A stretch of DNA of 64,000 nucleotides from a virus (IMGVR_UViG_3300005573_001035:73620-137619), one strand, 5' to 3'; shown: positions 38,040 to 56,783, counted from the first letter of the stretch. Notes: generated by a model from the sequence alone, not told the origin. Made by a program: numbers and translations.

Positions 38040-41000
38040 CTACATACTACAAGCATCTGGGTTCAAAGATCCAGTAATATCGATATCTAAATCTGCTATC
38101 TGCTGAGTTAAAGACCCAGAAGAAAAATCAATAGTAAAAACAGAGCTAACATAATTGCTGGTTCCAACGGGTTTTCGGACCATACCACAACCTTTATCCA
38201 GAGAACGACTAGCCTGAGAACTAGAAACTGCCCCTAACCCATAAGGCTGAGAGGAAGACAAGAAACTAAGTTGTAGCAATCCAGATGCAATTTCTCCAGT
38301 TGCGAAAGAAATTTCATCCATGTAACTATAAGTCCAAGAACTAGATCCAGTTAAGGCCCCTAGCAAGTAAGAAGAAAACCTATTGCTCATGCTCCTAGTA
38401 ATGCAAGCTAAAGATAAAGATCCCATCTGTTGCACAGAGGTATAGTTATTAACAAACTTCTCACAAGTCGAAAGATACAAAAGATTAGGGCTTACACTAC
38501 TTACACCCCCAAGAATGTAAAAAGATGGATTAGAATCATAATCAAAATTACAAGCAATGGCATGTCCAGCTCTTGCTCCTAAACAAAGATTGCCAAATGC
38601 AGTGCTTGAAGACCAGATACCAATCTTAGAAATATTACTTAGAGTTGTAGTTCCAGAGCCTCCCACGCCCCCACAATGGAAACCAATCTCATTGGTGCCA
38701 GGAGAGTACATTTGGGCAGCAGCCCATTTAGTGGTAGCGGTGAGAAGTGGGTATCCAGAACTCACAACATAATTGGAATTAAGTTTCTGCCCAGTGGTTG
38801 TAGAAACCGTCCCACTTGAATCGGAACTCCCGCCAAGCAAAAGAACTATATCGGAATAAGTTTTATTTGTAGCTGCCAACCCGTACCTAGTACCTCCCGA
38901 ACTAGCAAGAGTCCCTGTTTTAGATTGGGTATACAGATTATAAGTTGTGAAATTCCAGGAACTAGATGACTGAATCCCCGGATGCACAAACTTTGTGTAA
39001 AGCATATCAAGATCTAAAACAAGGATATTCTGAGATAGAACCATTCTAATGGTTTCTCTTGAAAGACCAAGTACAAATTGCTTCCTCCCACGACCAATCT
39101 CAGAATAGTACGTTGGATCAGCAAAACTTGGTGTGATTGTTTCCTGGCCAGAAGCTAAATTTCCAGCATCTTCAATAAATGCATACTTGGCGCTTTGTAA
39201 GGAAAAAGAAACAATATCTTCTTGATCTTTAGCTTGGGGAGCATAGTAATTAAGCCAGAAGAATACTCCCCCATCCGCAACGCTAGTTGGTTGCCAAGAG
39301 ACAGTTGCTGACATATCAGAAAGCTGGGCTAGGTGAAAGTTGTTACATTGAAATGGGTCTACTAAGATGGTATCTGAATATTCTCCTATATATTGCCCAT
39401 AGATTGCGCAGACCCGAATATACTGAGGTTTTACCTTGTTCCTTACTATGTATGAGGTATCGGGTATGAAATAAGTATTCAAAGCAGTTTGAAAGTCAGG
39501 ATCTTCAGCAACTTGAACTTTATAAAGACTCGCCCCAAGGACTGGGTTCCAAGATAAAGAAATACTTCCATCAGAAACTTGAACTGAGGCTTGAAGATTC
39601 TCAACCCTCCCTAAGCCAAGAAACAATCTAGTGGGTTGGGCTGGAGTGACTGCAAGATCGGTTTCTCCATTCTGAGGAGTCTTAGATGTTATAAGTGCGT
39701 ATCTTTCAACCAAAGGAACAAGAGGAATGGTGACAGACGTTTCTTCTATATTCTCATACTTAGATAGATAGTTTTGAGGAGAAACGGAGGTGGAATCTGA
39801 GAGGTATATACAGTAGGAAACTTTGCTTTTAGAATCTAGTATGGGGTCCCAGAATAAAGTTACCGTCTTAGCTTGCGTATTATAGACTGGATCTTTAAGG
39901 GAGGGAGAAGGGGGAGGAGAAATAATAGGACTTAGCATCATCGTTTTAAGATTCATCGTAATTATACAATCCCACGAATAAGTGAACAATTTCTGGGTAC
40001 CTTGTAAATAGATGCTCAGTTGGAAATGAAGGTTTCCATCTGGAAAGTAACTATAATGAGGAGTAAGAATTGTAAATTTCTTATCCCCCGCAAAGTTAAT
40101 AGATCCAAGAGTCTTATTCCACTCTTTGACGAATAGGGTGGCAGTTGTCTGGTTGAAAGTTGGTTCTGTGGTGTCATACATGGCATCGATAACTACGGTG
40201 CCATCTTGATTCCTACTAATATGAATCTTACTAACCGATAAAGCATACTCTTGAGGGTAGAAATTTTGCATAGAATCAGGAGATAGTTCTATTTCAATAT
40301 CTGTAACTTTGTACGAGTACTCACAACACCCATTTACATAATCAAAGCTAAGATCAAAGGGAAGAATATACTCATCGTTATCATCCAGGGCAACAATCTG
40401 CGACCCTTGAGATAAAGATGAAGGTTTAGATGTGATATCTATTTGTACACTTCTAAGAGGCAACCAAGCAGAGTCGGAACTGGTTCCATCTACATAGTTA
40501 CAAGTGCTGGATAAGTAACAAAACACGCTGTTTCTATGAATTGGAGTTGTTTTGGCGATTACATACGAGTCAGAAAATGGAAAATCTTCCAACAAAGAAG
40601 GCATATTCTCAAAATCAAGATTCGTAACCAATCTAGACAACTCGGTTATACTATCAATAGCTTGGCGCCTGGTAATTTCTGGTAGCTCAGCGTCTTCTCC
40701 ACCACTAGCAGGAAACGGATTCGTAATAGAGAATTCTAGAAGTTGCAATTCCTGGGTTACTGGATCTTGAACAAAGATTCGATCACAGCTCTTTATTGAA
40801 CCGGCAATAACATTTCCCGCTGACCCCATGGTCTCCTCAACGGTAACTCGGACAGTAGATCCAGGCTGGGGTTGTTGACCGAGAAGGCTATTGCCAAAAT
40901 AGATCTTAAGATTATTTCCAGATCTTCTAACTACGTATCCCCGATCATAAGGGGACATAAGGAATAAGCTATAGAATTCTGTATATATCTCTGGTGTGGA

Positions 41001-41666
41001 TGATCCAGGGGGGATAATAGAAACCTCTATACGTGAGGCCTGATCAGTTAGTGGAACCGAAATGCTCCAGAATTCATACGTTTGGATCTTTTCTTCTACT
41101 TGAAACTCATGGACTGTTTCTCGAACCTGTTCCACATCTACTAGGAAATGAAAGTACTTGACTCCAGTCTCTGAATTCGTTGAGTATCTGACAGGAATAG
41201 AATATATTCTATTTTGATCATGGACTTGAATAGATGCCGTATTGTTATTTGTCACGGTAATACGGCAAGAATACATAGAAAGAAACTCAACATTTGATGC
41301 ATAGAATTTATGCTTTTCAGGAATAACGAAACTTATACTACTTCTACTAAACATAAAAGGAACGCTAAATAGAACCTTTGCCCTTGCCTTAGATGCTGGC
41401 TTGGGCGAATAACCAAGTAACAAAGCCAAGTTTCTTATGTTATCCGACGAAAGAGCCTTAGTAAGATAAAATTCTCGATAAGCAGACGTAGAATAAAAAT
41501 TCAGGTTGCTAATAAGAACGGATATTATGTTGGTAAAGTACGCCAGAAAATTTGACTTGACCCAATCAATATTCTCAATTTCGTTCTGTTCTTTAAAGAA
41601 GTCAATTATCTGCTTTCTGATTCTATCTCTAGAAGAATAAACTAATCCATCAATTTTGTTTGCCAA
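38040..41666 (-). CDS. gp6-like baseplate wedge, paralog A, with FN3-like and Kelch-like domains
   Basis: REFYLTKA...NLALLLGYSP, IYFGNSLLGQQP, ASGGEDAE; ISLSWNPVLGASLYKVQVAEDPDF (FN3-like); LLGG/HCGG/ILGG repeats. Confidence 0.78.
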   Translation of the reverse strand: MANKIDGLVYSSRDRIRKQIIDFFKEQNEIENIDWVKSNFLAYFTNIISVLISNLNFYSTSAYREFYLTKALSSDNIRNLALLLGYSPKPASKARAKVLFSVPFMFSRSSISFVIPEKHKFYASNVEFLSMYSCRITVTNNNTASIQVHDQNRIYSIPVRYSTNSETGVKYFHFLVDVEQVRETVHEFQVEEKIQTYEFWSISVPLTDQASRIEVSIIPPGSSTPEIYTEFYSLFLMSPYDRGYVVRRSGNNLKIYFGNSLLGQQPQPGSTVRVTVEETMGSAGNVIAGSIKSCDRIFVQDPVTQELQLLEFSITNPFPASGGEDAELPEITRRQAIDSITELSRLVTNLDFENMPSLLEDFPFSDSYVIAKTTPIHRNSVFCYLSSTCNYVDGTSSDSAWLPLRSVQIDITSKPSSLSQGSQIVALDDNDEYILPFDLSFDYVNGCCEYSYKVTDIEIELSPDSMQNFYPQEYALSVSKIHISRNQDGTVVIDAMYDTTEPTFNQTTATLFVKEWNKTLGSINFAGDKKFTILTPHYSYFPDGNLHFQLSIYLQGTQKLFTYSWDCIITMNLKTMMLSPIISPPPSPSLKDPVYNTQAKTVTLFWDPILDSKSKVSYCIYLSDSTSVSPQNYLSKYENIEETSVTIPLVPLVERYALITSKTPQNGETDLAVTPAQPTRLFLGLGRVENLQASVQVSDGSISLSWNPVLGASLYKVQVAEDPDFQTALNTYFIPDTSYIVRNKVKPQYIRVCAIYGQYIGEYSDTILVDPFQCNNFHLAQLSDMSATVSWQPTSVADGGVFFWLNYYAPQAKDQEDIVSFSLQSAKYAFIEDAGNLASGQETITPSFADPTYYSEIGRGRKQFVLGLSRETIRMVLSQNILVLDLDMLYTKFVHPGIQSSSSWNFTTYNLYTQSKTGTLASSGGTRYGLAATNKTYSDIVLLLGGSSDSSGTVSTTTGQKLNSNYVVSSGYPLLTATTKWAAAQMYSPGTNEIGFHCGGVGGSGTTTLSNISKIGIWSSSTAFGNLCLGARAGHAIACNFDYDSNPSFYILGGVSSVSPNLLYLSTCEKFVNNYTSVQQMGSLSLACITRSMSNRFSSYLLGALTGSSSWTYSYMDEISFATGEIASGLLQLSFLSSSQPYGLGAVSSSQASRSLDKGCGMVRKPVGTSNYVSSVFTIDFSSGSLTQQIADLDIDITGSLNPDACSM

Positions 41667-43629: not shown

Positions 43630-43875
43630 CTATGATGATAGACCCAATCTTTTGTACTTAAGATTAGAAGAGTCACTCAAAGCTTTTAGTTCTGCCTTTT
43701 CTCGTTCTTCGTCCAGCTTTACTTTCAATTGCAGGATATCGTAGAATCTCTTAACTGGCATTGCCATAATATCTTCGTAAGGTTGATGAAGGAGCTCCAT
43801 CATTGCAAAGATATTCTCATTGAGAACTTTCAGGTAACTCATCACGGGGTTCACTTTCTTCGAGCCCCGACCCAA
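43630..43875 (-). CDS. Small tail/baseplate assembly chaperone C-terminal-type ORF (possible frameshift extension of the upstream gene)
   Basis: ENIFAMMELLHQPYEDIMAMPVKRF pattern; overlaps the upstream gene in the +1 frame; no clear SD. Confidence 0.6.
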   Translation of the reverse strand: MGRGSKKVNPVMSYLKVLNENIFAMMELLHQPYEDIMAMPVKRFYDILQLKVKLDEEREKAELKALSDSSNLKYKRLGLSS

Positions 43876-44695
43876 ATACCATCCGAAAAAACTGTGAGAC
43901 TAGATCAATATTCGATACTTGGATTTCCCCACAAGCTACACACTTGCTCCTAAATTTTAATTCGATTCCATACTTACCAAATTCATCCTTGTATTTATTA
44001 AAGATAAGTTTTCTATCAGGACTGGGCAAAGAAATGTAAGCAGAAATAATATCTTCCCTTGCTGTGTACTCATCCGTGGATCCAGAATCCAAAGTCTCCA
44101 CGATTTTCTCTATAACAAGGGTTTCCGTTACTAGGTCTTCCATCATTTTATCAGGATAAGCATAATTCTTGGTTGCGTCTTCTTCCATGAAAATAGTTGG
44201 TTGTCTAAGAACGACAGTTATATTTGGACTGCTCGTTAATTGAACAGAAACCCTCTTTTGTAAGATACTCATCCCAGCCGCTTCAACAGGCTGGCCTACC
44301 TTAACATTCTCATTGTAAGGAGTCACAGAAAAGGCCTCAGCCAAATTAACAGAAACCGAATAATCTTTCCCGCAAGAAGTACAAGTTAGGTCATAGTTCC
44401 TAATATCTCCATACGTCACATGATACAAACCATATAGAAGAGCATCTCGATCTTTCAAGGTAACGTTCTTCGTAAAAGCCGAGTAATCTCGAATATGATC
44501 TGGTTTCCTAACAATGCAATCCCAAAGAGTTCGGTTTAGAACTTCTACAAGTCGGTTTGGAAGTTTAAAACTTCCTTTTAATCTCTCTTCATCCTGGACC
44601 GTCATTGTCCTCACTGAGAAAGTTTGAAGAGTTTGAGGAACAATGACATCATATTCTGGATATACAAGAGTTCTAAATCCTTTAAATAGCGGCAT
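43817..44695 (-). CDS. Baseplate hub assembly protein, gp26-like
   Basis: VRTMTVQDE, DRDALLY, two CxxC pairs (CTSC, CVAC), C-terminal ...SQFF. Confidence 0.75.
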   Translation of the reverse strand: MPLFKGFRTLVYPEYDVIVPQTLQTFSVRTMTVQDEERLKGSFKLPNRLVEVLNRTLWDCIVRKPDHIRDYSAFTKNVTLKDRDALLYGLYHVTYGDIRNYDLTCTSCGKDYSVSVNLAEAFSVTPYNENVKVGQPVEAAGMSILQKRVSVQLTSSPNITVVLRQPTIFMEEDATKNYAYPDKMMEDLVTETLVIEKIVETLDSGSTDEYTAREDIISAYISLPSPDRKLIFNKYKDEFGKYGIELKFRSKCVACGEIQVSNIDLVSQFFRMVFGSGLEESEPRDELPESSQ

Positions 44696-44763
44696 TTTTC
44701 TAGTTTCTCCTTTCTTCTTTATACAAAAATCGAAAAAAGAATCATCGTTTTTTGTTCACACAG

Positions 44764-46029
44764 TTATTTCTTCTTTGATTTTGTTTTGGCTCGCCTAGCT
44801 TTATAGCCAGCAACTCGGCCCATAGAAGCACAGAAGGCCCAGGGATCGGACACTTTGTCTTTCATTTTACTGACACAGGTTCGAATCTTTCTTTTTCTAC
44901 CTCTAGTCATTGTCATAAAGGCTTTCTTTACACTTTTCTTAGTCCACCCTCTAGGGAGACTCGACCAAGCTTTACTTTTCGCCTCTAGAACTTGAGACTC
45001 GCTTATCTCTTCTCCTTCCTCTTCCTTCGAAGCACCAGAAATCATATTCAGTAAGAATCGAAGCTTATCTTCAAGTCTTCTTCTTCTCGCCATCAGCATA
45101 TGGGCGCATGGACGAGGAAGGTCTGATCCAGAACATAAAGACTCAGTTTTATTCAAGTAAGAAATCTTCTTTAATTGAATACTAATATGTGCCTTTAAGA
45201 TACATTCTGCTAGTGCATCTTCATCCTCTCCCGCAGACTCCTGGCAGGATCGATATAAGGGTTCAAGTTTAGAATCTAGTTCTTGGTAGCATTTGTAAAG
45301 AATAATTGTAAGAAGTGTTTGATAAGGAATCTTATCAGGATTCTTAATTAATAGAACCTTATCCGCTACGGTTTCAAAAGAATTGGAAAAAGATTCAGAC
45401 TTTATTCCGCTTTCAAACACTTCTTTGTTACCATCAATTATAGAACTTATTGTTTCTAGCAATGTTTTTCGATACTTCTTTAAAGCCGCAATTGATTCTG
45501 CTAGCTCAGACAGAGACTTTCTATACTTCTGGTCAGAAAGAACTTTCTTATCTTTTGACCTAAGTTTCCTAAACTGGTCTAGCAATCTTTCTTCTTCCCG
45601 AAGAGCTAAGCCTAGTTCCATGAACAAAGTGGCTTTGCTAAGCTTAAATCCGCCACCTAGTTTAACTTTTGAGAAGTTCATAGACTCGGAAAGAAACTTC
45701 TTGCTCGTGCTTGCTCCATGTAAGCAGACCAAGTTTTCTCGTAGATTTAAGCTAGTTTTCTGGCCTATAACTTTTGAGTGTGCCTTAATAAAAGACTTAA
45801 ATTTTTGCAAGATAGCTTCCTGCAACATATAAGATTCAGATAGAAAATCGATTGGAACTGGAATCTTCTTTCTACTCATAAGATAGTAAAGAATCTCAGC
45901 ATCAGATGCATCTTCCAAAATGTACTTCTTCGCTTGTGGGTTCTTTGTTATATTAGAAAGAACAGATCTTGCCGTTACTAGAAATCGAATCGTTTCCTGA
46001 ATTTTTTGCTTAGGACTTGTAGAACTCAT
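44764..46029 (-). CDS. Paralog array member 6 (divergent; extra C-terminal Cys/Trp motif)
   Basis: SDAEILYYLM N-motif; C-x13-C-x22-C-x8-C; tail WSSLPRGW...CVSKM...WAFC. Confidence 0.75.
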   Translation of the reverse strand: MSSTSPKQKIQETIRFLVTARSVLSNITKNPQAKKYILEDASDAEILYYLMSRKKIPVPIDFLSESYMLQEAILQKFKSFIKAHSKVIGQKTSLNLRENLVCLHGASTSKKFLSESMNFSKVKLGGGFKLSKATLFMELGLALREEERLLDQFRKLRSKDKKVLSDQKYRKSLSELAESIAALKKYRKTLLETISSIIDGNKEVFESGIKSESFSNSFETVADKVLLIKNPDKIPYQTLLTIILYKCYQELDSKLEPLYRSCQESAGEDEDALAECILKAHISIQLKKISYLNKTESLCSGSDLPRPCAHMLMARRRRLEDKLRFLLNMISGASKEEEGEEISESQVLEAKSKAWSSLPRGWTKKSVKKAFMTMTRGRKRKIRTCVSKMKDKVSDPWAFCASMGRVAGYKARRAKTKSKKK

Positions 46030-46075
46030 AGCTTTGTTTCCTCTCTTTCTTTAGTAAGAAGTAACTGGAAAATAG

Positions 46076-47092
46076 TTACATTCCAGTTTGTATACGAATC
46101 TTATCTAATTGGAGCCTTGTTGCAGTTAGTTTCTTCATGGTTGAAACTATTTCTTTCTGAATCTTTGTTGAGCATGCGCTGGGATCTTTGGCTTTGGTAC
46201 ATTTAGGTAGCGAAGATCTAAGAGCATTAACTTGGTCCGTTAAGGCTCTAACTTTATATTCCTTTATGCATCGATCTGGATCTGGGTTAGTCCTACATGC
46301 TTTGGCGGCTTGGGAAAACTTCTTCTCGTAGACATATTTTGCTATCTTCACAATAGCCGCAGCAACAGGTAGAGCAATTCCAACAGTTGTAAGTGTAGAA
46401 AGCGCTCCCCCTAAAGCCCCTACTGAAGCTCCAGAACCAACCAAAGCTTTGGCTAAGCCTCCAAGACCCCAAGCAGTCATTGCTTTTCCTGCGCCAGCCA
46501 TAGCAATTGCACCTGGTTTTTGCTCAGGTGGGGCAGCCGCAGCAGCTAATTTTTGTTGCATTCCTGCCACTTGGGCCTTGAGTAATTGGATCTCCTTTTG
46601 CCCGTTTTGAATTTGTTTCTGTAAATCCTGGATTCTTGTATTAATGGCATCCTTCTCAGCTGGTCTCTTTGCCACTGCTAGCTGAGATTGAAGCTGGTTC
46701 TTTCTTGCCTCAAGTTGTTTAACCTCAGCTTGTTTCTTTTGGATAGCCGTCTGCTCCCGAAGTAATTTCCTAACTATTGGATAATTGCGAGATGAAACCC
46801 CAAACAAAGAGGGTGGAATAAAAGATACCTCTTTTTCTTTTAGTAACTTAGAAAAAGGAGGAGAAAAAGATATAAATGATAGCAGAAATACTTCTTTTAG
46901 AGGTTCATTTTTAGACTTTTTTACTTGATCCAAAGACCCAGTTAAGTAGAATTCAAGAAGTTGTTGGTCTGAACATAAAGCAACGAACTCTCTAATTTTA
47001 GGGTTATGTTTATTCTTAACAAAAAGATACTTTCTTAATCCATACAATATAGCTGTAGTATATAGAAGAGATTTATTATCGGAATGTTCCAT
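46076..47092 (-). CDS. Paralog array member 5
   Basis: SDQQLLEF; LLREQ; coiled coil; Gly/Ala hydrophobic segment; C-x8-C-x22-C-x8-C. Confidence 0.8.
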   Translation of the reverse strand: MEHSDNKSLLYTTAILYGLRKYLFVKNKHNPKIREFVALCSDQQLLEFYLTGSLDQVKKSKNEPLKEVFLLSFISFSPPFSKLLKEKEVSFIPPSLFGVSSRNYPIVRKLLREQTAIQKKQAEVKQLEARKNQLQSQLAVAKRPAEKDAINTRIQDLQKQIQNGQKEIQLLKAQVAGMQQKLAAAAAPPEQKPGAIAMAGAGKAMTAWGLGGLAKALVGSGASVGALGGALSTLTTVGIALPVAAAIVKIAKYVYEKKFSQAAKACRTNPDPDRCIKEYKVRALTDQVNALRSSLPKCTKAKDPSACSTKIQKEIVSTMKKLTATRLQLDKIRIQTGM

Positions 47093-47138
47093 TCTATCTC
47101 TTTGTCTCCCTTATATTTGTAAAAGAAAACTCGCTTTA

Positions 47139-47184
47139 ACAAAAAAAGAAAGGGTAGAAATTCAGATTTTTCTACCCTTTTCTT
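47139..47184 (-). terminator. Intrinsic terminator-like hairpin
   Basis: 12-bp perfect stem AAAGGGTAGAAA/TTTCTACCCTTT followed by a T-run on the minus strand, downstream of the gene ending at 47219. Confidence 0.7.
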
Positions 47185-47218
47185 ACTAAGAAAAAAACAA
47201 ATAAGTGGAAAAAATACT

Positions 47219-48265
47219 TTACATCATTTTTCTCATCTTGTTTCTAATTTCTTTGATCTTAGCCTGAATTCTATTCGCACACTTCTTAGAATTCCTAACC
47301 TTTCCACATATCGCTATGGATCGTCTTAACTGAGCCTCTCTCTTTCTTAAGGCATCCACCTTGTACTTCTTTATGCATATAGATTTCTCTGCGCCCTTCT
47401 TCCTAGAACATGCCTTTGCAGCTTCGCTAAAATAACGATCATATACCTTCTTGCTAGCATAGATAATAAGAGCTGCCAACGCCACTCCCGCAACCATGTA
47501 AGCAGCCGGACCCAAGGACCTAATCTTCGACACAATGTCATCGGGGTTTACTTGGGGAGAATTTCGGACAGCATCAATTATGTCCTCCATACCCTGCCTG
47601 GCCTTAGCGGCATAGTCGGATACCATTTTCGAAATTTCGCTGCTGCTCTTACCCGCCTTAGCGCCTAGATTCGAAATAAACTCTTTAGCACTAGAAACGG
47701 CACTACCAATGCTAGGAAGACCACCCTGTTCAGACAATAACGTCTTCGCATAATTAGCATACTCAATTCCAACACTGGGGTCAAAACTTAAAGATGCTTC
47801 TCGAATAAGCATAGCAGCCAGATCTTTTCGAATCCTCTTTTTAGTTTCGGATAACTTAGTAGGAGTTAAGTTGGGAAGTTTCTTTCCTCTCTTCTGAAAG
47901 AAGACTCTGGCTTCGCTAAGTTTCGAAGACAGACCAAAAGATCTCAAAGGAACCGCTGAGGATATAGTCTGAATAATTTCCTTTTTCTCCTTTCCCATCT
48001 CAGAAGGAAGAATTTGATTCAGAATATGAGATGCTTTCCTTGAGAACTCATCTAAAAGAATCAGCTCCCGAATATAGTTCTTATCATTTGGTACAATCTT
48101 GCCAGTTGTCACCATTTCAAGCAACTGGTAATCAGATAACTCATTTAGGACAAGATTTTGAACTTGTTTCTTTCCTCTTGGAGTTTTTGCTTTTTGTGAA
48201 AGATATGAAGCGAGCTCCTTCCTAACCAAAGTCAATAGAAGAAGATTTTCTTTAATTGCATTCAT
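47219..48265 (-). CDS. Paralog array member 4 (start likely ATG 48265, MNAIKEN)
   Basis: AGGAGG SD before 48265; SDYQLLEMV; LLSEQ; hydrophobic helix; C-x10-C-x22-C-x8-C. Confidence 0.8.
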   Translation of the reverse strand: MNAIKENLLLLTLVRKELASYLSQKAKTPRGKKQVQNLVLNELSDYQLLEMVTTGKIVPNDKNYIRELILLDEFSRKASHILNQILPSEMGKEKKEIIQTISSAVPLRSFGLSSKLSEARVFFQKRGKKLPNLTPTKLSETKKRIRKDLAAMLIREASLSFDPSVGIEYANYAKTLLSEQGGLPSIGSAVSSAKEFISNLGAKAGKSSSEISKMVSDYAAKARQGMEDIIDAVRNSPQVNPDDIVSKIRSLGPAAYMVAGVALAALIIYASKKVYDRYFSEAAKACSRKKGAEKSICIKKYKVDALRKREAQLRRSIAICGKVRNSKKCANRIQAKIKEIRNKMRKMM

Positions 48266-48391
48266 TACTAAATTTACCTCCTTACACATTTGTTAAAAAA
48301 TTCTCTATCTTCAGACAGTTTTTTGTTAAGTTTTTTCTCTTAGTTGTCATGTCCTTTTATCCATTTCTCAGTAAATATTTTGGGGAAATTA

Positions 48392-48582
48392 TCAGTCTGA
48401 GATCAATCCCCCTCTACCAACTACCATCTCTAAGATCTGGTAATCTGTGAGTTCATTAAGAATAGTATCCTGAAGTTTCTTCTTTTTAGTTCTAGCCTTT
48501 GGAAAAGAAGCTATAGATTCCAAAGAACGCTTCTAGCATGAGCTAGTAATAATAAAATTTCCTTATTAACATTAATGTGCAT
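48392..48582 (-). pseudogene. Frameshifted, truncated remnant of the paralog N-terminal domain
   Basis: MHINVNKEILLLLAHARSVL / frameshift / ESIASFPKARTKREKLQDTILNELTDYQILEMVVG*, colinear with the N-terminus of 49145..50341. Confidence 0.8.
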
Positions 48583-48684
48583 TTTAGTTCTTTCCCCTTA
48601 TCTCTTTTTCTTTGCAGGGAACCCGCCTTTCAAAAAGCAGGCTTCCCTCAAGCAAAGTTAAAAATGCTAGTAGGATCTGCCACC

Positions 48685-49160
48685 TTAGAAATTGCCAGAG
48701 AATGGTCTGTTTTCGGCCAATTTTTTGTTAAGTTTGTCTCTTAGTTTAGCTATCCTTTTATCAATTTCTCGGTTACACTTTGGGGGATTGTCAGTTCTCA
48801 CGCATAGTTGTCTTGCTTTCTCAAGATCCTTGATTTGTTTCTGGAGTGTTTCAATCTCGTATTTCCTAACACAGCTTTCATAAGCTCTTTTTGGCAGCCC
48901 CTCGCATTTTGACTTTTCTACAGCTCGAGTGATGCGTTTTACTCTCGAAATAATCCATATAACAAATGTTATATAAGCTGCAAGAGGAATAATATTAAGA
49001 AGTTCCGGATTATGCCTTATCACGTGAAAAACAACATCTATGCCTTGACCAGTTTGTTCTACAAGATCTTTCAGAAAATTGAATACACCCCCAACACCCT
49101 CTTGTTCTGCTAAAAGACTAGCCTCCTGAAGGGAGAAAAGGTCCTCACTTCCTAAAGTTT
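48685..49160 (-). CDS. Paralog array member 3 (C-terminal module only; frame open upstream of the called GTG)
   Basis: Frame is open from 49200: ...SEDLFSLQEASLLAEQEGVGG...; hydrophobic helix; C-x10-C-x22-C-x8-C; true start uncertain. Confidence 0.65.
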
Positions 49161-50341
49161 TTTTGGACCGACTCAGACATGGTTTTCTGGAGCTTTGCCC
49201 TTAGTTTAGCAATCTTTTTCTGGATTTCCATATTGCACTTCTGAGGATTTCTGGTCTTAGAGCACAGTCTCGCAGATGACTGAAGCTGTTTAATTTCTGC
49301 CTGGATGGCTTGGGACTTGTACTTTCGAACGCAAGCATCAAAGGCTTTTCCTCTTTGTCCCCTACATGCCCTTGCAGCCTGAGAGAAGAATCTTCGATAT
49401 ATTTTTGTACCAGCATATAGAAGAGTTCCTGCCAAAGCCGCAGCCCCAATTCCACCAGCTAAAGCGGGATTAGTTTCAATCCACTTCTGGACAGGTCCCA
49501 GTTGTCCTTGCGCCTTATCTACAAGCCCTCGCATAGTGTCGTATGCACTTTGGGCTGCTCCTTGCGCAGTATTGTATGCACTTTGGGCTGCTCCTCCAAC
49601 TTTATTCATAAGAGCGGAAGCTGCAGAAGGCACTTCGCCCATCGTATCAAGTGCTGTGTCGGTGGGTACTTCGCCTATCGTATCAAGTGCTGTGTTGGGA
49701 CCCTCACCAGACAGCCCAGGAGCCACAGGCTTTTTAGCAGCCGCTTTAGCTGCGTTGAGCCTTGCAACCTCCCTAGTATAGGCAGCCGGGTCTGAAAGTG
49801 CAAGCCATGGATCGACAAAATCAGCTTCAAGAAGCATCTTAGCCTTGCCTAAAAGCTCCTTCTCCTTCAAGGGATCAAGAACCGATCTAGATTCAGAAAT
49901 AAGAGCCTTTATAAGTTTTTGCTTAGTTTGAGTCTTAATCTTTGAAGCTTCCTGCAGAGAAACATATGGAATTTTCTTTTTGCCCTTTAGATATTCCTTA
50001 GCTTCGCTAAGACGAGAACTCATCTTGTAGAAACGAAGGGGAAGAGAATTTCGAATCGCTTCGGCAAATTCCTTACCAACTCCTGCTTGAAGGAGAATTC
50101 TAGATGCTCTCCTGGTAAAAGTCTCATGTAGGACTAACTCTCTAGCAATATTAGACTTGTTAGAAGTTACTATGCCTCCAATTACCATCTCTAAGATCTG
50201 GTAATCTGTGGCTTTGTTGAGAATAGCATCTTGGATTTTCTTCTTCTGATTTCTAGTCATTGGAAGAGAACTAATAGACTCAGAAAGCGAACTTCTAACA
50301 TGACCTAGTAATAATAGAATTTCCTCATTAACATTAAGCAT
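49145..50341 (-). CDS. Paralog array member 2
   Basis: TDYQILEMVI; LLEAD; internal 11-12 aa duplications; hydrophobic helix; C-x10-C-x22-C-x8-C. Confidence 0.8.
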   Translation of the reverse strand: MLNVNEEILLLLGHVRSSLSESISSLPMTRNQKKKIQDAILNKATDYQILEMVIGGIVTSNKSNIARELVLHETFTRRASRILLQAGVGKEFAEAIRNSLPLRFYKMSSRLSEAKEYLKGKKKIPYVSLQEASKIKTQTKQKLIKALISESRSVLDPLKEKELLGKAKMLLEADFVDPWLALSDPAAYTREVARLNAAKAAAKKPVAPGLSGEGPNTALDTIGEVPTDTALDTMGEVPSAASALMNKVGGAAQSAYNTAQGAAQSAYDTMRGLVDKAQGQLGPVQKWIETNPALAGGIGAAALAGTLLYAGTKIYRRFFSQAARACRGQRGKAFDACVRKYKSQAIQAEIKQLQSSARLCSKTRNPQKCNMEIQKKIAKLRAKLQKTMSESVQKNFRK

Positions 50342-50414
50342 TTTTGGTTTTCCTCCTTGTTTTTCTCTATCTAGTAGGATTTTCTACTAAGCTTAGCATA
50401 CAGAATCCAACACA

Positions 50415-51818
50415 TTATGCCTTGGATAGTTTTTGTCTCTTTTGGATTAGTTTCATTAGCCTCTTTCTTAGAAATGCCTGGCATTTCGAAGGATTGGATG
50501 TCTTTCTGCATAGAGACATACTAGACTGGACTTGTGAGATTTCTTTCGCCAAGGCTTCCCTCTTAGCTTTCTGTACGCACTCATCAAAAGCAGCTCCCTT
50601 TAAGTGAGAACACGCTCGGCCATACGCACTAATATGCCTCCGATAAATCCTTCTTCCAGCATAAGCCAATAAGCCAGCCAACGCAACCCCACCAATAATG
50701 TGGGTTAGGGTTGGGTTGGAATCAACCCACTGCTTAACTTGCTGAAAAGAACCTTCATGTTTATCAATCATTTGCTTTAAAGCATTATAGAAATCTGAAA
50801 TTTTCTCGCTCGCCTTATCAACTAGAGATGGAGTGGTGGCCCCAGGTTCTCCGCTAAGTGGTGGAACTTCTGTTTGTTCTGTTCCATAAGCAGACTCTGG
50901 ATAGTGCCTTCCTGTAACTGCGCCAGAAAATTCGGGTCCAAGGCTATACTCATCCCCAGGTCCAGGTACAGATGCCGCTGGCTCGAGGCTTGTATAGTAG
51001 GGATGGGTAATTGGGTTTGGCCCAGTAGGTCCTCCTATATAACTAGGATGAAGGGCCATGGTTCCTCCAGATTTACCAAGTTCTCCGATCGCTTCTGGTG
51101 TTATAGTCCCAGCAGGAAGTGCATTCTCAGGACCTGCCCAGCCCCTTGCAGCATGGCGAACATCCTGCTGAGCAATTCGGGCAACGTCCGCTGGAGATGA
51201 GGATTGTCCAATTACCTTTTTCCAGTACTCATAAGGCGTCCTTAGGAAGAAATCTTTAGCTGCTTCAAGAGCGTCTCCCCTACCCTGTTCAGCTAAAAGT
51301 CTAGCCTTAGACAAAAACTCCATTCTTTTCAAATTATCGAAGGTACTCTCCGACTCTCGAAGAAACGAGGCAATAAGAACTGGTCTTAGATTCTTTCTTA
51401 CTTTCTTCATTTCATTTAAAGAAAGAGAAGGAAAAGATTTCTTTCCAGAAACAAACTTTTTGACTTCGGTTAATCTGGAGCTGGTCTTAAAGATTCTTAG
51501 AGGAACAGAATATGCAAAGACCTCGGAAAGTTCTTTTAAGGAACTTGACTTCTTAGATATAGACCTAAGTATAGAAGCAACCTTAAAAGAAAAGGCCTCA
51601 TGCAATATAACTTCCCTTGCAATGTCATGTTTCTTAGAAACCATTCGTCCATTAATTACCATTTCCAGAATCTGATAATCGGTTAGCTTGTTCAAAATAA
51701 TATCTTTAGCACTGGCTCTGTTCTTTTTGGCAATGTAAGGAAGCAAGGCTTCTGAAAGAGCTTCTCGAATATGAAGTAAAAGAAGCATAGTTTCCTTTCT
51801 GGGATCATATTTAGCCAT
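50415..51818 (-). CDS. Paralog array member 1
   Basis: TDYQILEMVI; LLAEQ; Pro/Gly-rich variable region; hydrophobic helix; C-x10-C-x22-C-x8-C. Confidence 0.8.
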   Translation of the reverse strand: MAKYDPRKETMLLLLHIREALSEALLPYIAKKNRASAKDIILNKLTDYQILEMVINGRMVSKKHDIAREVILHEAFSFKVASILRSISKKSSSLKELSEVFAYSVPLRIFKTSSRLTEVKKFVSGKKSFPSLSLNEMKKVRKNLRPVLIASFLRESESTFDNLKRMEFLSKARLLAEQGRGDALEAAKDFFLRTPYEYWKKVIGQSSSPADVARIAQQDVRHAARGWAGPENALPAGTITPEAIGELGKSGGTMALHPSYIGGPTGPNPITHPYYTSLEPAASVPGPGDEYSLGPEFSGAVTGRHYPESAYGTEQTEVPPLSGEPGATTPSLVDKASEKISDFYNALKQMIDKHEGSFQQVKQWVDSNPTLTHIIGGVALAGLLAYAGRRIYRRHISAYGRACSHLKGAAFDECVQKAKREALAKEISQVQSSMSLCRKTSNPSKCQAFLRKRLMKLIQKRQKLSKA

Positions 51819-51869
51819 GTTTACAAAGTCTCCTTTCCAAGAAATATTCTTTTAAGTGTGCTTATATAC

Positions 51870-52583
51870 TTATCGACGTCCACCATATGTCTTAACAAGC
51901 TCTTTAGATCCTACAAATTGCTCCTGGATTCCCTTAATGTAGTTCAAAACCCATGGTTCTCGATAAGCATAATCAACATGGAATGGAATTTCAACGTCCA
52001 ACCTAGCAATCGACTCAATATCAAAGGAATACAAGTCCTGAGGATCCTTTAGAGGGAAACACCCATCATAGCAAACAAAGTACTCAACCGAAACACCATC
52101 TGGGGCAGTGGTCCAGTAATAGATCAAGCAACCAAAGGTCTTCATAGAATACCCATCGCCCTGGTCACCATCAATAAGATCAGTAGCCCCAGTTCTATAG
52201 TCTCTAATCATCTTAATCCAAGCATGGAAAATGTTGAGAATAGGAACCTTGTTAAATTCTAAGAACTTTATAGAAATTTCATTACCATAATCAATGTTAC
52301 CTGGCACTGCCCACTTCAAACCACCAAGACCAGGTAACTCAACTTTGGCCAGAGTTCCCCCAACTGGAGTTACAGAAAGACATGACGCAGATAGAATTAA
52401 CTGGACTTCTGACAGAGAAGTAATGTTACTATCTAGCAATGAAACATAGTCTCCAAGCGCTCGAGGCAAACGATCAAACCAAGTAAAACCATACCCTGAA
52501 GTATAAGGATCAGCAGTTCCAGTTAACCCACCAAACTTACGACTAAATAGATTTTCCCTTAGAGCAGCAAAAGACGTTTTCAT
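51870..52583 (-). CDS. Tail tube protein (gp19-like)
   Basis: SVTPVGGTL...VPGNIDYGNEISIKFLE...IFHAWI...YDGCFP...VEIPFHVDY follows the tube-protein pattern. Confidence 0.7.
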   Translation of the reverse strand: MKTSFAALRENLFSRKFGGLTGTADPYTSGYGFTWFDRLPRALGDYVSLLDSNITSLSEVQLILSASCLSVTPVGGTLAKVELPGLGGLKWAVPGNIDYGNEISIKFLEFNKVPILNIFHAWIKMIRDYRTGATDLIDGDQGDGYSMKTFGCLIYYWTTAPDGVSVEYFVCYDGCFPLKDPQDLYSFDIESIARLDVEIPFHVDYAYREPWVLNYIKGIQEQFVGSKELVKTYGGRR

Positions 52584-52588
52584 TCAGA

Positions 52589-52909
52589 CTACCCCCTATT
52601 TTTAGAAGCGTGTGTATTTTTGTCCTTCTTGGATTTTGTAACCCTTCTTTTCTTTTTACTAGGCAAAGAAGCAGAGATGATTGAGTTTCCAGCCGCTATG
52701 GAATCTGGATATGGAACTCGGAGGACAGACTTCTCTCTAGATGGGGCTGGAGAGTCTATTGGCAAAAAAGACTCAGCAACTTTTCTAGCATATTTCATGA
52801 ACATAAACTCTACCATTGGATCAAAGAAGAAATCTGAATCCATCAAGAAGATCTCCTCTTTTTGCAAAAAGATAGAATTTCCTAATATTTTGTTCTTAAC
52901 ATAGTTCAA
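52589..52909 (-). CDS. Hypothetical protein (start probably the internal MDSDFF)
   Basis: Short ORF; AGAGGAG precedes the internal ATG. Confidence 0.45.
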   Translation of the reverse strand: MNYVKNKILGNSIFLQKEEIFLMDSDFFFDPMVEFMFMKYARKVAESFLPIDSPAPSREKSVLRVPYPDSIAAGNSIISASLPSKKKRRVTKSKKDKNTHASKNRG

Positions 52910-52969: not shown

Positions 52970-53527
52970 TTATTCTTCTTGTTGGGATGTTGGGAGGCTG
53001 GAGGGACTTGTTTTCGAAAGAGAGACTTTTCTTCGGACTTGCATCGCGGAATCAACAGCTTCGATAAGCTCATAAATCTGCTCTTCTTCAAGAAGACCAG
53101 TTCCTGGACCATTTTGTCCAACTTTTCGAACCATCTCAAACTCATCTTTCAAAGATCTAGATATCTCCTTCCTTATTTCTAATAGCACTCGGAATAACTC
53201 GCTCAGAGACTTAACTCTTTCCGTGTAAACCATTGAGTTTCTAAAATCTGGCCGGTCTGGAAAAAGGAGGTCTATCTTCTTCTTTGTATGATCCAATTCT
53301 TGGATTAATTGAAAAAGAGCATTTCGGTTCGTAGCAAATTCTTGAAGCAAAGAATTTAGTCGTTCCTGGGGATCTATGCTATTAGGATTCGTGACTCCAG
53401 GAAGACCACACCCATCATCTATTGATACCGGAAGGTCCAAAGATGAAGAATTCTGGTCTTCCTGGAGTAGGGGATCTTGGTCTTCGAAATCAATCGAGGT
53501 AGTTAAACTTTCGTCTTGGGAACTCAT
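52970..53527 (-). CDS. Hypothetical coiled-coil protein (start likely MSSQDES)
   Basis: AGGAGG before ATG ~53527; overlaps the end of nrdD-C. Confidence 0.65.
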   Translation of the reverse strand: MSSQDESLTTSIDFEDQDPLLQEDQNSSSLDLPVSIDDGCGLPGVTNPNSIDPQERLNSLLQEFATNRNALFQLIQELDHTKKKIDLLFPDRPDFRNSMVYTERVKSLSELFRVLLEIRKEISRSLKDEFEMVRKVGQNGPGTGLLEEEQIYELIEAVDSAMQVRRKVSLSKTSPSSLPTSQQEE

Positions 53528-55337
53528 AAGTCCTCCTAGTTTTGGCCCAACTAGAAACCGGAGTAAAGTAACCAACAACGCGAGTGATGTAATCTGAAAC
53601 TTTCTCCCCACAAATTGGACATATTTCCACTTTCTTTAAGACGGAGTGCCTATTTGGACATACAGAAAATACAGGATTCAAGGCAAAGTGCTCAAGACCA
53701 CATGAAATGGCATATTGAATTAGTTTTTTCATTTGGTCTTTCGTTGCTGGGGCTCCAATATTTAGATGACTAATCATACCACCTGTAAAGTACTTACTCA
53801 TAATTCCATCAATTCTAGCTCTATCAAATAGGTCAATATCTAACCACAAAGGAACGAATTGGTTAGCATATAACATATGCTCATTGTCTCCAAAAAAGAC
53901 CGCATCCTTTCTTGCCGACACAATAGCTGCGCCTTCTGCAGGAACTTGCTCAATGTTAATTGGAATAGAATACTGGTCTATTTTATCTTTAGCTAATGAA
54001 TTTAGATAGTTTAGAATTTCGATGGCAAAATCTTGATTCTCAATTAAATCATAGCCCATGTACCTGAGTCCCTCATAGAAACCATTTATACCAACCGTAG
54101 AATAGAACATACGATCCAAATCAAACCACTTAAGAGGACTAAAGAATTGGAGACTCCCCTCTTCGATCTTATCCCTAAGAAGCATTCTATGAGCATAAAG
54201 AATCTTTACACTATCTTCAAAAGAATCTGCAATATGCATCTTAAATAAAGACTTATCTCCTCCGCTCATCCTACCTAGTCGTGCTACGTTAATTGTGCAC
54301 ACCCTGTGTGAGCCAATATTAATACCTCCATTCCCAAAACTATCAATCCCCTTGTATTGCATCAAATCAGCAACATTATTAATTAGTCGGCAACAAGATG
54401 CAATCTTTGCATAATCAGTTGTTATAAAGATATTAAAGAGCCCTTCTCGATTATAATTAGCAACCTGGTCTATAAAATCATAGTCTAAACTACCATTTGC
54501 AAAAATATTACAGGTAGTAACTGGGAATCTATATGGCAAGTTGGTCATGGGATCTTTATCGGCCATAAACTTTAAGAAAATATTTTGCACTTCTATAATA
54601 ACGTCTTCTATATCTTTAGCACATGTACCATCTGGAAAGTAATGATTATCGAAAACTCTCTCCAAAGTAGGCCTATCAAAAATAGATACGTTTGTAAAGG
54701 GACTATTATGAGCATAGATTCCAGAAGAACAAACAAAATTCTCATCTCCTTCAACGGAAATATCATACACGTAGTTATCTACTGCTAAGTTAGTTTCTAT
54801 TTTTGTAACAAATGCAAGTTCTTTGGTTAGGACCTGAGATGGATTATTTGGATCTTCCGATTCAACAACTACTTGCATTCCCGGTTTGGTCTGGTTAGGA
54901 GAGAACGTTCTAATTATTCCATTTTCATCTTTGTAGAAAAGACTATGGTCTTCGGTGGTAGAGATCTTGGATCCATCTTGAAGGTACAGATCGTAGAGAT
55001 CATTTTTCCTAACATGCTTCTCAACTGCGTAGATCTTGTGGAACATTTCTGTTCCATCTTCCGTATTAAATGACTTGGTGTAGTAGGAATCACTTCCATT
55101 TAACGGAAAGTAAAGATCGAAATTGGTTGATTGGGGAATAAACCTATCAACAAATTTACCAATTTCTATATCCATCGGCTCTAATTCAACGAGTTCTATA
55201 TCGTAATCTGGTGGAAGAATATGTATTGTTCCATTCTTCAGTGTAATGTAAACCATCCCATCTTCTTCTCGAATGGACTTAATGTTTTGTTTAACGATTG
55301 TCAAGCTTGGGTAAATAACTTGTTTCTGATTTGGCAT
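53490..55337 (-). CDS. nrdD: Anaerobic ribonucleotide reductase C-terminal half, preceded by the split-intein C-fragment (aa 1-211)
   Basis: Intein block B TTEDHSLF and blocks F/G VYDISVEGDENFV...GIYAHN/S; extein SPFTNVSIFD, SCCRL, EQVPAEG, CPNRH...CPICG, glycyl radical YITRVVGYF. Confidence 0.92.
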   Translation of the reverse strand: MPNQKQVIYPSLTIVKQNIKSIREEDGMVYITLKNGTIHILPPDYDIELVELEPMDIEIGKFVDRFIPQSTNFDLYFPLNGSDSYYTKSFNTEDGTEMFHKIYAVEKHVRKNDLYDLYLQDGSKISTTEDHSLFYKDENGIIRTFSPNQTKPGMQVVVESEDPNNPSQVLTKELAFVTKIETNLAVDNYVYDISVEGDENFVCSSGIYAHNSPFTNVSIFDRPTLERVFDNHYFPDGTCAKDIEDVIIEVQNIFLKFMADKDPMTNLPYRFPVTTCNIFANGSLDYDFIDQVANYNREGLFNIFITTDYAKIASCCRLINNVADLMQYKGIDSFGNGGINIGSHRVCTINVARLGRMSGGDKSLFKMHIADSFEDSVKILYAHRMLLRDKIEEGSLQFFSPLKWFDLDRMFYSTVGINGFYEGLRYMGYDLIENQDFAIEILNYLNSLAKDKIDQYSIPINIEQVPAEGAAIVSARKDAVFFGDNEHMLYANQFVPLWLDIDLFDRARIDGIMSKYFTGGMISHLNIGAPATKDQMKKLIQYAISCGLEHFALNPVFSVCPNRHSVLKKVEICPICGEKVSDYITRVVGYFTPVSSWAKTRRTYEFPRRKFNYLD

Positions 55338-55369
55338 GCGTATATTTCTCCTTCTCTTTTTTTTCTAAA

Positions 55370-56233
55370 CTAAGTGGTTAGGACTCGATCTGCTAAACGA
55401 ATAGTTGGGTACAAGTAAGGAACAACCTCTATGTTACCAGAAGAAGGTATTCGAACTACCACTCCCCCAAGATCTGGTTGGACTTTTCCGTAGCAATTTA
55501 CCAACTTTGACCATCCTCCCCAAAGTTTCCAACATGGAGCTTGAATAAGAACTCTTGATGGAAATTTCAAGCATAGGAATCTATGAAGATGTCCTCTTGC
55601 ATATAAGTCAATTTTATCTCCTATTCGATACAAACTTTGATCCAAGAAATTAGACTCTCTTTCCAAAGAGGTAGACAAATAGATTAAACTCTGACTTGAA
55701 CCATGGACAAAGAAACACCTGGTTCCTACATTCTTCAATCTAATATTAGCAACTAGACCAAAGAAAGTCCCTCCCAACCTTAAGGTCACAAGTTTATCTA
55801 GTGACAAATCTATAGAATTATGATATCTAGATCCATCAACTGAGATAATTAACTTCCCACCAGATACCAAAGGGGTTAAGATCTTAGAGGCCACTTGAAG
55901 TTGAGCATCTAACTCTGCGGTTGTTAACTGGCGCCCAAATTCTCTTCTGTTATTTCCTTCACATATATCTCCAAGAAGAACAACGGTATCACACCCAGAT
56001 GCCTTCTCACAGAAATCATTCCAATATTCTAATAGAACTTTTTGTGCGGAATTTGCTCTAATCTCAAGTGAGTCACCCGAAAAGTCACTCCATAACCCGT
56101 ACAAACTTCCTACATGGAGGTCCCCAACAATTGCTATCTCTCTCGATTTAGATGGTAGTCTTGGCCTCTTTTTTGATGCCATTCTACTTTCCCCCTCTAT
56201 TATGCACATATGTGAACTAGGTTTGAAGTACAT
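55370..56233 (-). CDS. Calcineurin-like metallophosphoesterase
   Basis: GDLHVG, LLGDICEG, DGSRYH, FVHG, RGHLH. Confidence 0.8.
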   Translation of the reverse strand: MYFKPSSHMCIIEGESRMASKKRPRLPSKSREIAIVGDLHVGSLYGLWSDFSGDSLEIRANSAQKVLLEYWNDFCEKASGCDTVVLLGDICEGNNRREFGRQLTTAELDAQLQVASKILTPLVSGGKLIISVDGSRYHNSIDLSLDKLVTLRLGGTFFGLVANIRLKNVGTRCFFVHGSSQSLIYLSTSLERESNFLDQSLYRIGDKIDLYARGHLHRFLCLKFPSRVLIQAPCWKLWGGWSKLVNCYGKVQPDLGGVVVRIPSSGNIEVVPYLYPTIRLADRVLTT

Positions 56234-56319
56234 GTATAGATCTTACAAAAAGTAGGTCCTGACAAGAAAGAAAAACCTCGAGAGGGGAGAAAGCATAAAA
56301 CTAATGTAATCGAATTTCG

Positions 56320-56667
56320 TTAGACTTCAAAAATTTCTATACTAAATGGATCCAGGTCATTAGGAGTATCTGGTATCTTCTCATTCATAGTAAGGGCATC
56401 TCGTTCCTGTTCTATTGTTTTGGTTTGTTTCTTTCCTCCTTCTTTTACTACATTCACACTACTAGAAACTTCTTCTAGTTTATTGTAGTCAATTCGTCTC
56501 GATACTATATCCTTCATAGTAAAACCAAACGCGTACAATTTCTTCTTAATCGAACTGGTAGTTCGATATGGAAGAACCTCGGCAATTTCTTTAAACGAGC
56601 ATCCCTTTCGAGCCAAGTCTAGAAGAACCTGAATTTCTTCTTCTGACCACCCTAAGTTCTTGATCAA
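56320..56667 (-). CDS. Myb/SANT/GcrA-like helix-turn-helix protein
   Basis: WSEEEIQVLLDLARKGCSFKEIAEVLPYRTTSSIKKKL. Confidence 0.7.
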   Translation of the reverse strand: MIKNLGWSEEEIQVLLDLARKGCSFKEIAEVLPYRTTSSIKKKLYAFGFTMKDIVSRRIDYNKLEEVSSSVNVVKEGGKKQTKTIEQERDALTMNEKIPDTPNDLDPFSIEIFEV

Positions 56668-56783
56668 AGTCTATCTCCCTCTCCTCTCTCTTTCTAGTCA
56701 ATAAAAGTACAAAACTTTTCAACTTTTATTTTTATGTTCAGAGAGAGGTTAATTTTCACCCCTACTATCACCAAACAACAAGA

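Follow-up and report, generated by a model that had tools for sequence, protein, structure and literature searches.

A new family of four-cysteine module proteins encoded between the tail tube and hub genes of uncultured giant phages, with a possible role at the host membrane

The stretch of viral DNA IMGVR_UViG_3300005573_001035:73620-137619 (64,000 nucleotides; the whole of it is called the window below, and positions are counted from its first letter) carries an array of related genes between the genes of a tail-tube-like and a T4 gp26-like baseplate hub protein. The listing of open reading frames (ORFs) gives six consecutive paralogs on the minus strand, A to F, from 44764 to 51818, and a seventh, deleted copy is found at about 48290-48582 (Table 1). 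The original prediction, made by a model from the DNA alone, had described six consecutive ORFs beside a tail tube gene. Both the ORF listing and the profile matches of the tube-like gene (phrog_45 'tail tube', 3.5e-4; phrog_21400, 2e-8) bear this out, and in Bacillus phage BpSp the gene next after that of the sheath gives a weak tblastn match to the tube-like protein.

What do the six proteins share? A full member of the family has an all-helical N-terminal domain (N-domain), a variable linker rich in Ala, Lys and Gly, a weakly hydrophobic helix rich in Ala and Gly, and two basic amphipathic helices. In the six-way alignment the invariant columns are four cysteines (Cys) and one Lys only. The predicted motif C-x(8-13)-C-x22-C-x8-C agrees exactly with the measured spacings, which are x10/x22/x8 in A to D and as given in Table 1 for E and F. 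A hydrophobic helix was claimed for five of the proteins, and the best 19-residue Kyte-Doolittle windows are in keeping with it: 1.48 in A, 1.49 in B, 2.12 in C, 1.95 in both D and E, and 0.83 in F. This hydrophobic segment directly precedes the first Cys in all paralogs except F, whose C-terminus has an additional basic tail carrying two further Cys. The claim that five share the N-domain stands in part: the hidden Markov model (HMM) of this domain matches A, B, D, F and the remnant of the seventh copy, but E has only a weak version seen by eye, and C has none. The middles had been called unrelated, and indeed they cannot be aligned with each other. All six proteins are basic, with isoelectric points (pI) of 9.7-10.0. 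The ortholog of A in a related locus (L002) is 91% identical. For D, the later of the two starts in Table 1 is probably the true one, as it matches the start of the ortholog. The hairpin between D and E is a lead and no finding, since the consensus scan gave 10 sites in the region against 9.0 expected.

Table 1. The paralog array, its flanking genes and the tape-measure-like gene in the window (aa, amino acids)
Feature	Position	Strand	Description or basis
Tail-tube-like gene, directly upstream of array	51870..52583	-	PHROG profiles, tblastn
Paralog A	50415..51818	-	467 aa; N-domain, Pro/Gly-rich middle, hydrophobic helix, 4-Cys module
Paralog B	49145..50341	-	398 aa; N-domain, middle with short internal duplications, hydrophobic helix, 4-Cys module
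A7 run close to the end of B, at the change to the frame of C (+1 relative to B)	49158..49164	-	codon reading
Paralog C	48685..49023	-	112 aa from GTG; hydrophobic helix and 4-Cys module only
Remnant of seventh copy	48290..48582	-	N-domain HMM match 48392-48523; DNA comparison with L001
Paralog D	47219..48289	-	356 aa as listed; probably 348 aa, start 48265 behind AGGAGG
Terminator-like hairpin, 12 pairs and T run, between D and E	47149..47180	-	consensus scan
Paralog E	46076..47092	-	338 aa; weak N-domain, Gln-rich coiled-coil middle, hydrophobic helix, 4-Cys module (x8/x22/x8)
Paralog F	44764..46029	-	421 aa; N-domain, without clear hydrophobic helix, 4-Cys module (x13/x22/x8)
T4 gp26-like baseplate hub gene, directly downstream of array	43817..44695	-	PF12322 3.4e-13 (whole model), phrog_150
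Tape-measure-like protein, 1376 aa	27033..31163	+	after terminase gene, before conserved 369-aa virion protein gene

Is the array private to this giant phage of a hot spring? A family profile of 12 sequences was scored against 1.84 billion cluster representatives and found 1418 proteins at E<=1e-3, of which 794 reached E<=1e-10 and 13 reached E<=1e-30, while a word-based search found three relatives only. The profile search, one of the checks suggested with the original prediction, thus shows a large family of 1418 cluster representatives that is not private to the phage; none of the ten representatives looked up carries a name. When 146 members were aligned, the four Cys were the sole invariant columns. 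Among 153 proteins, 126 have one N-domain and one C-terminal module (C-module: the hydrophobic helix with the 4-Cys part), 18 have the C-module only and nine have repeated domains. Their linkers are 19-260 residues long (median 120), with 16% Ala, 14% Lys and 10% Gly. By median pI, the N-domain is acidic (4.5) and the C-module basic (10.1), and 84% of the 153 proteins as a whole have a pI above 9. A core motif of the N-domain was noticed by eye in some of the proteins with the C-module only; the HMM found it in just 4 of 46, and it is not claimed.

The searches for a known relative gave nothing significant. Paralogs A to D match no Pfam or PHROG family at E<=0.01, and scans of the family against Pfam, PHROGs, NCBIfam and PADLOC returned only coiled-coil or low-complexity noise; in the Pfam scan of the 146 members no family recurs in more than six. 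A sub-threshold match to DUF6619 (E 0.0016) was dropped, as it occurred in one of five whole contigs and lay below the cut-off there. The PDB sequence search with the whole-family and C-module profiles gave nothing under E 0.2, and the ESM Atlas gave no usable match. By tblastn against 50,697 GenBank phages, two family members and the hub protein were unmatched, and the tube protein matched AR9/BpSp-like giant phages only, weakly. Scans of viral contigs with single window proteins found no match, whereas the alignment-based scan described below succeeded. The literature holds no description of such a family among what was searched, which is weak evidence because words cannot search a sequence family. 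The statement of the original prediction that no known family fits therefore holds across profile, PDB and fold searches, and the six genes belong to a new protein family.

A structural model was obtained with AlphaFold2. For the C-module of D (110 residues, 81 sequences) it is a three-helix bundle, with a predicted local distance difference test (pLDDT) score of 89.0 and a predicted template modelling (pTM) score of 0.76. The helices span residues 21-47, 53-82 and 88-109, and the hydrophobic stretch is helix 1, which the bundle is predicted to hide. Of the four Cys, those at 48 and 82 stand at the ends of helices 1 and 2, respectively, that at 59 is placed six residues inside helix 2, and that at 91 three residues inside helix 3. 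Whole D (146 sequences) was modelled as all-helical (pLDDT 80.1, pTM 0.75), with pLDDT above 90 up to about residue 130 in the N-domain, a poorly defined linker at 190-265, and 94-97 in the C-module. The shared part at the N-terminus had been taken for a targeting leader; in place of a short signal, the model has a folded, all-helical domain of about 130 residues. The suggestion of a stapled hairpin like that of twin Cx9C proteins is half right: the module is helical and Cys-stapled, but a three-helix bundle is predicted and the spacing is unlike Cx9C. Indeed x10/x22/x8 occurs in 76 of 105 modules and x9...x9 never. The hydrophobic stretch contains 31% Ala and 13% Gly, with a mean Kyte-Doolittle value of 1.21 and a median of three small-xxx-small motifs. 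Helices 2 and 3 are amphipathic with net charges of +3.7 and +4.6, and the whole module carries about +0.20 per residue. In Foldseek the best matches of the C-module are three-helix bundles (the MIT domain and designed bundles) at E 0.35 or worse. Nothing significant came from the PDB with Foldseek (both models), VIA wide or BFVD, where the N-domain alone was barely covered; the best Z of 8.0 in VIA wide is below the noise level for helical proteins.

Do the four Cys form one site or two? In 264 distinct modules, 256 keep all four, and six lose Cys3 and Cys4 jointly while Cys1 and Cys2 are kept; two further modules, one without Cys1 and one without Cys4, are read as alignment-edge cases. In related loci, these six are the short copies that come last before the hub; they probably stem from one lineage and may go back to a single event. 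By eye, a second paralog in locus L034 has the same paired loss, and a third lacks all four Cys. In the model the two pairs lie at opposite ends of the 30-residue helix 2, one pair per turn. Because Cys3 and Cys4 are lost only together and the pairs are placed in this way, the modelled structure and the alignment favour two independent turn staples (disulfides) over a single four-Cys metal site, which would require the whole set of Cys at once and in spatial proximity. A functional disulfide network has been reported in a phage tail (PMC10811340).

The family is found at a fixed place in other genomes as well. A pattern scan of IMG/VR with an 11-sequence alignment gave 76 loci, in which homologs of the gp26-like hub (61 of 76), the tube (59), gp25 (58), a 218-aa gene (57) and gp6 (55) were found. 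The gene order is sheath (660 aa, phrog_19666/23), a 65-aa ORF, tube, family, hub, an ORF of about 76 aa, gp25, genes of about 170 and about 218 aa, and gp6. As for the loci with both tube and hub, the family lies between them on the same strand in 49 of 49, and nothing else lies there in 44. One copy occupies this place in 19 of the 49, two in 19, three in 10 and eight in one, so that the comparison of copy number among relatives, another of the suggested checks, shows variation from one to eight. These members are 119-501 aa long, and single copies are 179-437 aa. Family ORFs were also counted with the N-domain and C-module HMMs over 79 sources, namely the 76 loci, L001, L002 and the window. 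As many loci are cut, the counts are lower bounds: one copy in 30 sources, two in 29, three in seven, four in five, five in six, seven in one (the window, remnant included) and nine in one. Ten loci have further members downstream of the hub among baseplate genes, most of them short, and L067 has two members beside homologs of the window genes at 14147-15556, in the tail-fibre region. N-only and N-plus-C forms stand side by side in eight loci, including L057, L060, L064, L072 and L075. In L034 (314-1833) an extra copy, which has lost all four Cys, lies upstream of the sheath gene and directly after an endolysin-like gene (phrog_435, 1e-39); the gene order in L048 is as in L034, the scan that identified the endolysin-like gene covering L034. 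Five whole contigs behind related loci measure 207-312 kb, for which reason the clade is regarded as one of giant phages, and two of the five are complete, with repeats at their termini. Across a large clade of uncultured giant myoviruses, the family belongs to the core of the contractile-tail gene module and is syntenic.

How has the family evolved? The ratio of nonsynonymous to synonymous substitution rates (dN/dS), computed against orthologs in L001 and L002, is 0.26 for A, 0.23 for D, 0.32 for E and 0.10 for F, compared with 0.03 for the tube, 0.08 for the hub and 0.05 for gp25. The family genes are thus real and constrained, at 0.10-0.32. Pooled by part, the ratio is lowest in the N-domain (0.15), intermediate in the C-module (0.20) and highest in the middle (0.35), which confirms the expectation of conserved ends with a fast-changing middle. 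Where a locus has several copies, the nearest relative of a C-module mostly belongs to a different locus (76 of 94 modules). A tree of 88 C-modules, coarse because the module is short, mixes old paralogs with many lineage-specific pairs. Its lineage-specific groups include A, B and D of the window and pairs in L014, L049, L056, L032, L019 and L021, while E groups with copies of L032 and L074 and F sits on a long branch. The original prediction had spoken of an expanding and diversifying family. Copy number from one to eight, a deletion of about 1.33 kb and repeated duplications agree with it, but most copies are old.

The deletion concerns the seventh copy. Its remnant lies in the 395-bp gap between C and D and consists of the start of an N-domain (ATG 48582) that runs into stops and frame breaks and to which the gene's final ~20 codons are attached. 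At this position the close relative L001 has a full gene of 542 aa (P0003). Window 48936-48409 matches L001 1-538 and window 48398-48201 matches L001 1871-2065; since these matches flank a missing stretch, about 1.33 kb has been deleted in the window. P0003 has one N-domain and two units of hydrophobic helix plus 4-Cys module, and the relative P0002 has three such modules; the module is therefore a repeatable unit. P0003 is also fused across the junction equivalent to that of B and C. Paralog C has no Shine-Dalgarno sequence, and homologous sequence runs on in frame upstream of it. Its frame is open from 49200 to the GTG at 49023, that is for 60 codons with no start codon within, and this stretch is homologous to the linker of P0003. 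Judged from these homologies, B and C are the halves of one split gene, of which a paralog is the fused form. The exact B protein (P0001) is recorded on four contigs. Contigs of two hot-spring runs reproduce the junction without differences, in a check of contigs alone, with both runs possibly the source sample, by which slippage is not detectable. The split may represent a decaying fusion, a +1 slippage or a separate start at the GTG. In the same two runs, lower-depth variant contigs cover 44000-52600 with joints and indels inside the array (strain-level differences), for example joints from 48313 to 48716 and from 49303 to 49826, with 477 letters in place of the second stretch; cross-mapping between paralogs may account for some of these variants.

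The window has a separate candidate for the tape measure gene (Table 1). The 1376-aa protein is rich in Lys, Glu and Ala and has a long Gly-rich hydrophobic block; its gene contains tandem repeats of 72 nt x5.1 (30201-30553) and 21 nt x4.2 (29011-29098). Its match to phrog_15478 'tape measure' is weak (7.7e-4), and the same motif is matched in three relatives; in L035, nearly the entire homolog is covered by a match to phrog_167 (2.2e-7). Exactly one homolog per contig (ORF of 883-1442 aa) is found in all five large related contigs, and in G001, G002, G003 and G005, where the main array is evident, it lies about 10 kb away. A tape measure gene followed by the gene of the 369-aa virion protein recalls the order gp29-gp48 of T4. 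One relative of the tape-measure-like protein, P0158, is filed under Pacearchaeota.

What, then, is the function of the family? Its members probably act on or in the host membrane during tail function, as a new type among the tail-associated membrane-active proteins. More specifically, and tentatively, we favour the reading that they are tail-borne proteins which change from soluble to membrane-inserted at infection and help DNA entry, because they have a fixed place in the tail operon and extra copies among the baseplate genes. In this scenario the proteins would be made late, together with the tail, and the three-helix bundle would keep them soluble; the N-domain would build them into, or beside, the hub end of the tail. 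At infection they might leave with or ahead of the tape measure and open, so that the hydrophobic helix could enter the host membrane while the basic helices would lie on the acidic lipid surface or on DNA. The outcome would be a DNA conduit that is formed or anchored, and the array would reflect repeated duplication and divergence of the host-facing part. A weakly hydrophobic helix buried in a soluble bundle, as modelled, suits a protein that has to avoid the membrane of the producer cell, and Cys staples suit a particle exposed to air. By analogy, the design resembles that of soluble proteins which later enter membranes. The T4 tape measure is described as having a transmembrane segment sheltered by a helical bundle and as forming an inner-membrane pore (preprint 10.64898/2026.03.06.709160); a hidden hydrophobic helix is therefore a known design in tail-delivered membrane proteins. 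A bolder version, which we consider rather unlikely, would make the family a second class of tail-delivered membrane proteins beside the tape measure. Here 'spring-loaded' bundles would flip their buried Ala/Gly helix into the inner membrane, with two turn staples and with the linker as a tether to the hub-binding domain. The arrays, with up to eight or nine diverged copies, would then be one side of an arms race with conduit-blocking exclusion proteins of the host or of rival phages, in the way that Imm blocks the T4 tape measure.

Several points weigh against a role in DNA entry. The same preprint reports that the T4 tape measure alone makes the pore, and the phage's own tape-measure-like protein carries a long hydrophobic block, so that the need for an additional membrane protein is not obvious. 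For phage P7-1 it was calculated that six copies of the tape measure fill the tail lumen (PMC13338283), which would leave little room for cargo. A clear hydrophobic helix is missing in paralog F and in about 12% of modules (hydrophobicity <=1.2), and the fold searches gave generic helical matches only. An extra copy after an endolysin-like gene, as in L034 and L048 (the endolysin-like gene being identified in L034 only), does not fit well, and a look-up of RNA runs for the window stretch listed no match.

Could the proteins serve in the producer cell and be absent from the particle? They might be assembly factors or membrane anchors for a tail or hub assembly that starts at the membrane, a possible but not a probable explanation. 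The N-domain would then be cytoplasmic and bind hub or tube, the helix would span the inner membrane, and the basic module would be periplasmic, its two Cys pairs oxidised by the host. Paired Cys are typical of extracytoplasmic domains, and tail assembly chaperones are usually encoded in the slot after the tube gene; the family has both the paired Cys and this slot. The occurrence of N-only beside N-plus-C forms in eight loci points the same way, as does the place of the family directly beside the gp26-like gene, T4 gp26 being listed as a hub assembly chaperone in Table 2 of PMC3004832. However, the charge of the module disfavours export across a membrane, the helix is weakly hydrophobic and predicted to be packed inside a soluble bundle, and it is rare for such factors to reach as many as eight copies or to exceed the rate of evolution of their clients 3- to 10-fold. 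The basic character of the proteins leads to another thought, that they are soluble cargo or effectors which the tail carries for anti-defence or for taking over the host; the N-domain would be the signal for loading, and a membrane role would be absent. The inner face of tail tubes is acidic, and proteins as basic as the six and most of their 153 relatives would suit it; moreover, paralogous injected virion proteins (PF12699) are described from other giant phages (10.64898/2026.04.21.720040). We regard this as improbable, for no enzymatic or known effector domain was found in the profile scans, Pfam and NCBIfam included, conservation is strongest in the hydrophobic helix and the Cys module instead of the variable middle, and the lumen space is limited, as calculated for P7-1 (PMC13338283).

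A membrane role of a different kind would be that of late proteins which protect or time the infected cell, either by superinfection exclusion, through Imm-like binding of the tape measure, or by lysis control. Diversifying arrays with strain-level turnover would fit an arms race, and the extra copy directly after the endolysin-like gene of L034, with the same order in L048, would fit lysis. There is also a precedent in T4 Imm, a small protein of the membrane for which binding to the tape measure is described (preprint 10.64898/2026.03.06.709160). Yet the genes lie inside the tail structural operon on the same strand in all 49 loci, and exclusion genes are normally early or lysogenic. No holin-like partner stands beside the L034 copy, whose 62-aa neighbour has no hydrophobic stretch. 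Holins, spanins and Imm-type proteins are short, have an N-terminal transmembrane helix or several such helices, and are encoded in lysis cassettes or early operons. The single helix of the family is placed near the C-terminus after 130-300 residues, and no holin, spanin or Imm is known to have such a long N-domain before a single helix; the family has no match to profiles of such proteins, the PHROG lysis families included. This explanation is thus unlikely. Least probable of all, and largely refuted, is the reading of the family as the tape measure of the tail or as one piece of a split ruler. The idea comes from the slot that the family fills, as many contractile-tail phages encode the tape measure between the tube and hub genes. 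The family is also all-helical with a hydrophobic segment, and tape measures appear among the weak, non-significant rows of BFVD. Against it stands the separate 1376-aa tape-measure-like gene, with its single homolog in each of the five large contigs. In addition, one to eight copies of unequal length (119-501 aa), with single copies of just 179-437 aa, are unlike one ruler; none of the six window paralogs matches tape-measure profiles, and no tape measure is among the 25 Pfam families listed for the 146 relatives.

Other features of the window and its relatives may be noted. Beyond the hub gene come a gp25-like gene and then two gp6-like genes; the latter are tandem baseplate wedge genes of about 1200 aa each (34390-37983 and 38040-41666, minus strand), where relatives have one of about 830 aa. 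The gp26-like hub protein has invariant CxxC...CxxC pairs. An 81-aa ORF (43630-43875, minus strand) shares 59 nt with the end of the hub gene, read in the +1 frame, and an ORF of 63-80 aa recurs at this place in many related loci, with dN/dS 0.26; the overlap could be a case of coupling or recoding. Two very long collagen-like tail-fibre genes (2-2731 and 9288-14099, minus strand; PHROG E down to 1e-256) lie where the window is high in GC (0.48-0.49) and strongly skewed, and two PHROG NrdD matches lie at 53490-57605. As for the host, the sole locus in the genome collection, L081 (BPGB01000002.1, 211 kb), is filed as a Candidatus Woesearchaeota metagenome-assembled genome and carries a family member. 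Contigs of giant phages seem to be binned with DPANN archaea, and this locus therefore gives no host clue.

The crossing of the inner membrane by contractile tails is still being worked out, the pore formed by the T4 tape measure being a recent report, and the family is a concrete candidate for an extra player. It brings a predicted hidden membrane helix to the centre of the tail module in a clade of 200-300 kb phages, and it is absent from Pfam, PHROGs and NCBIfam. The compact stapled three-helix module can be expressed and tested directly, and the family is a useful marker for this uncultured giant-phage clade. If the proteins are merely assembly helpers, an annotation blank is still filled for about 1400 protein clusters.

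There is a further question, which known systems does the family resemble? Twin Cx9C (CHCH) and small-Tim twin Cx3C proteins are helical hairpins in which two Cys pairs bridge one hairpin. Like them, the family has short helical modules held by two Cys pairs, but its spacing is x8-13/x22/x8 and it has three helices with one pair per turn. A single protein had a chance-level Pfam match to zf-Tim10_DDP (E 0.0085), and none of the 25 Pfam families most often matched by the 146 members is of the CHCH or Tim kind. Another comparison is with lambda gpG/gpGT, a small acidic tail assembly chaperone that uses a programmed -1 frameshift and has its gene between those of the tube and the tape measure. 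The position after the tube, a shared N-terminal part with or without a C-terminal extension, one frame-shifted pair (B/C) and an N-domain that is acidic in most relatives (by its median pI) are alike. Unlike gpG/gpGT, the whole window proteins are basic and have a hydrophobic helix and a Cys module, there are up to eight copies, the relation of B and C is +1 instead of -1, and the tape-measure gene is elsewhere; the window proteins and the 146 relatives have no match to Phage_TAC profiles. The PF12699 proteins of Chimalliviridae are likewise described as paralogs of giant phages (10.64898/2026.04.21.720040), but they are head-borne, while the family belongs to the tail module and has no homology to them; the PHROG ejection (pilot) families gave no profile match either. 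Last comes T4 gp29 as described in preprint 10.64898/2026.03.06.709160, with which the family has in common the setting among tail genes, a hydrophobic helix hidden by amphipathic helices and, as proposed here, a membrane role in DNA entry. It differs from gp29 in having no sequence or fold match to it and in being encoded in phages that have a tape-measure-like gene of their own, as small, separate, multi-copy proteins with Cys staples.

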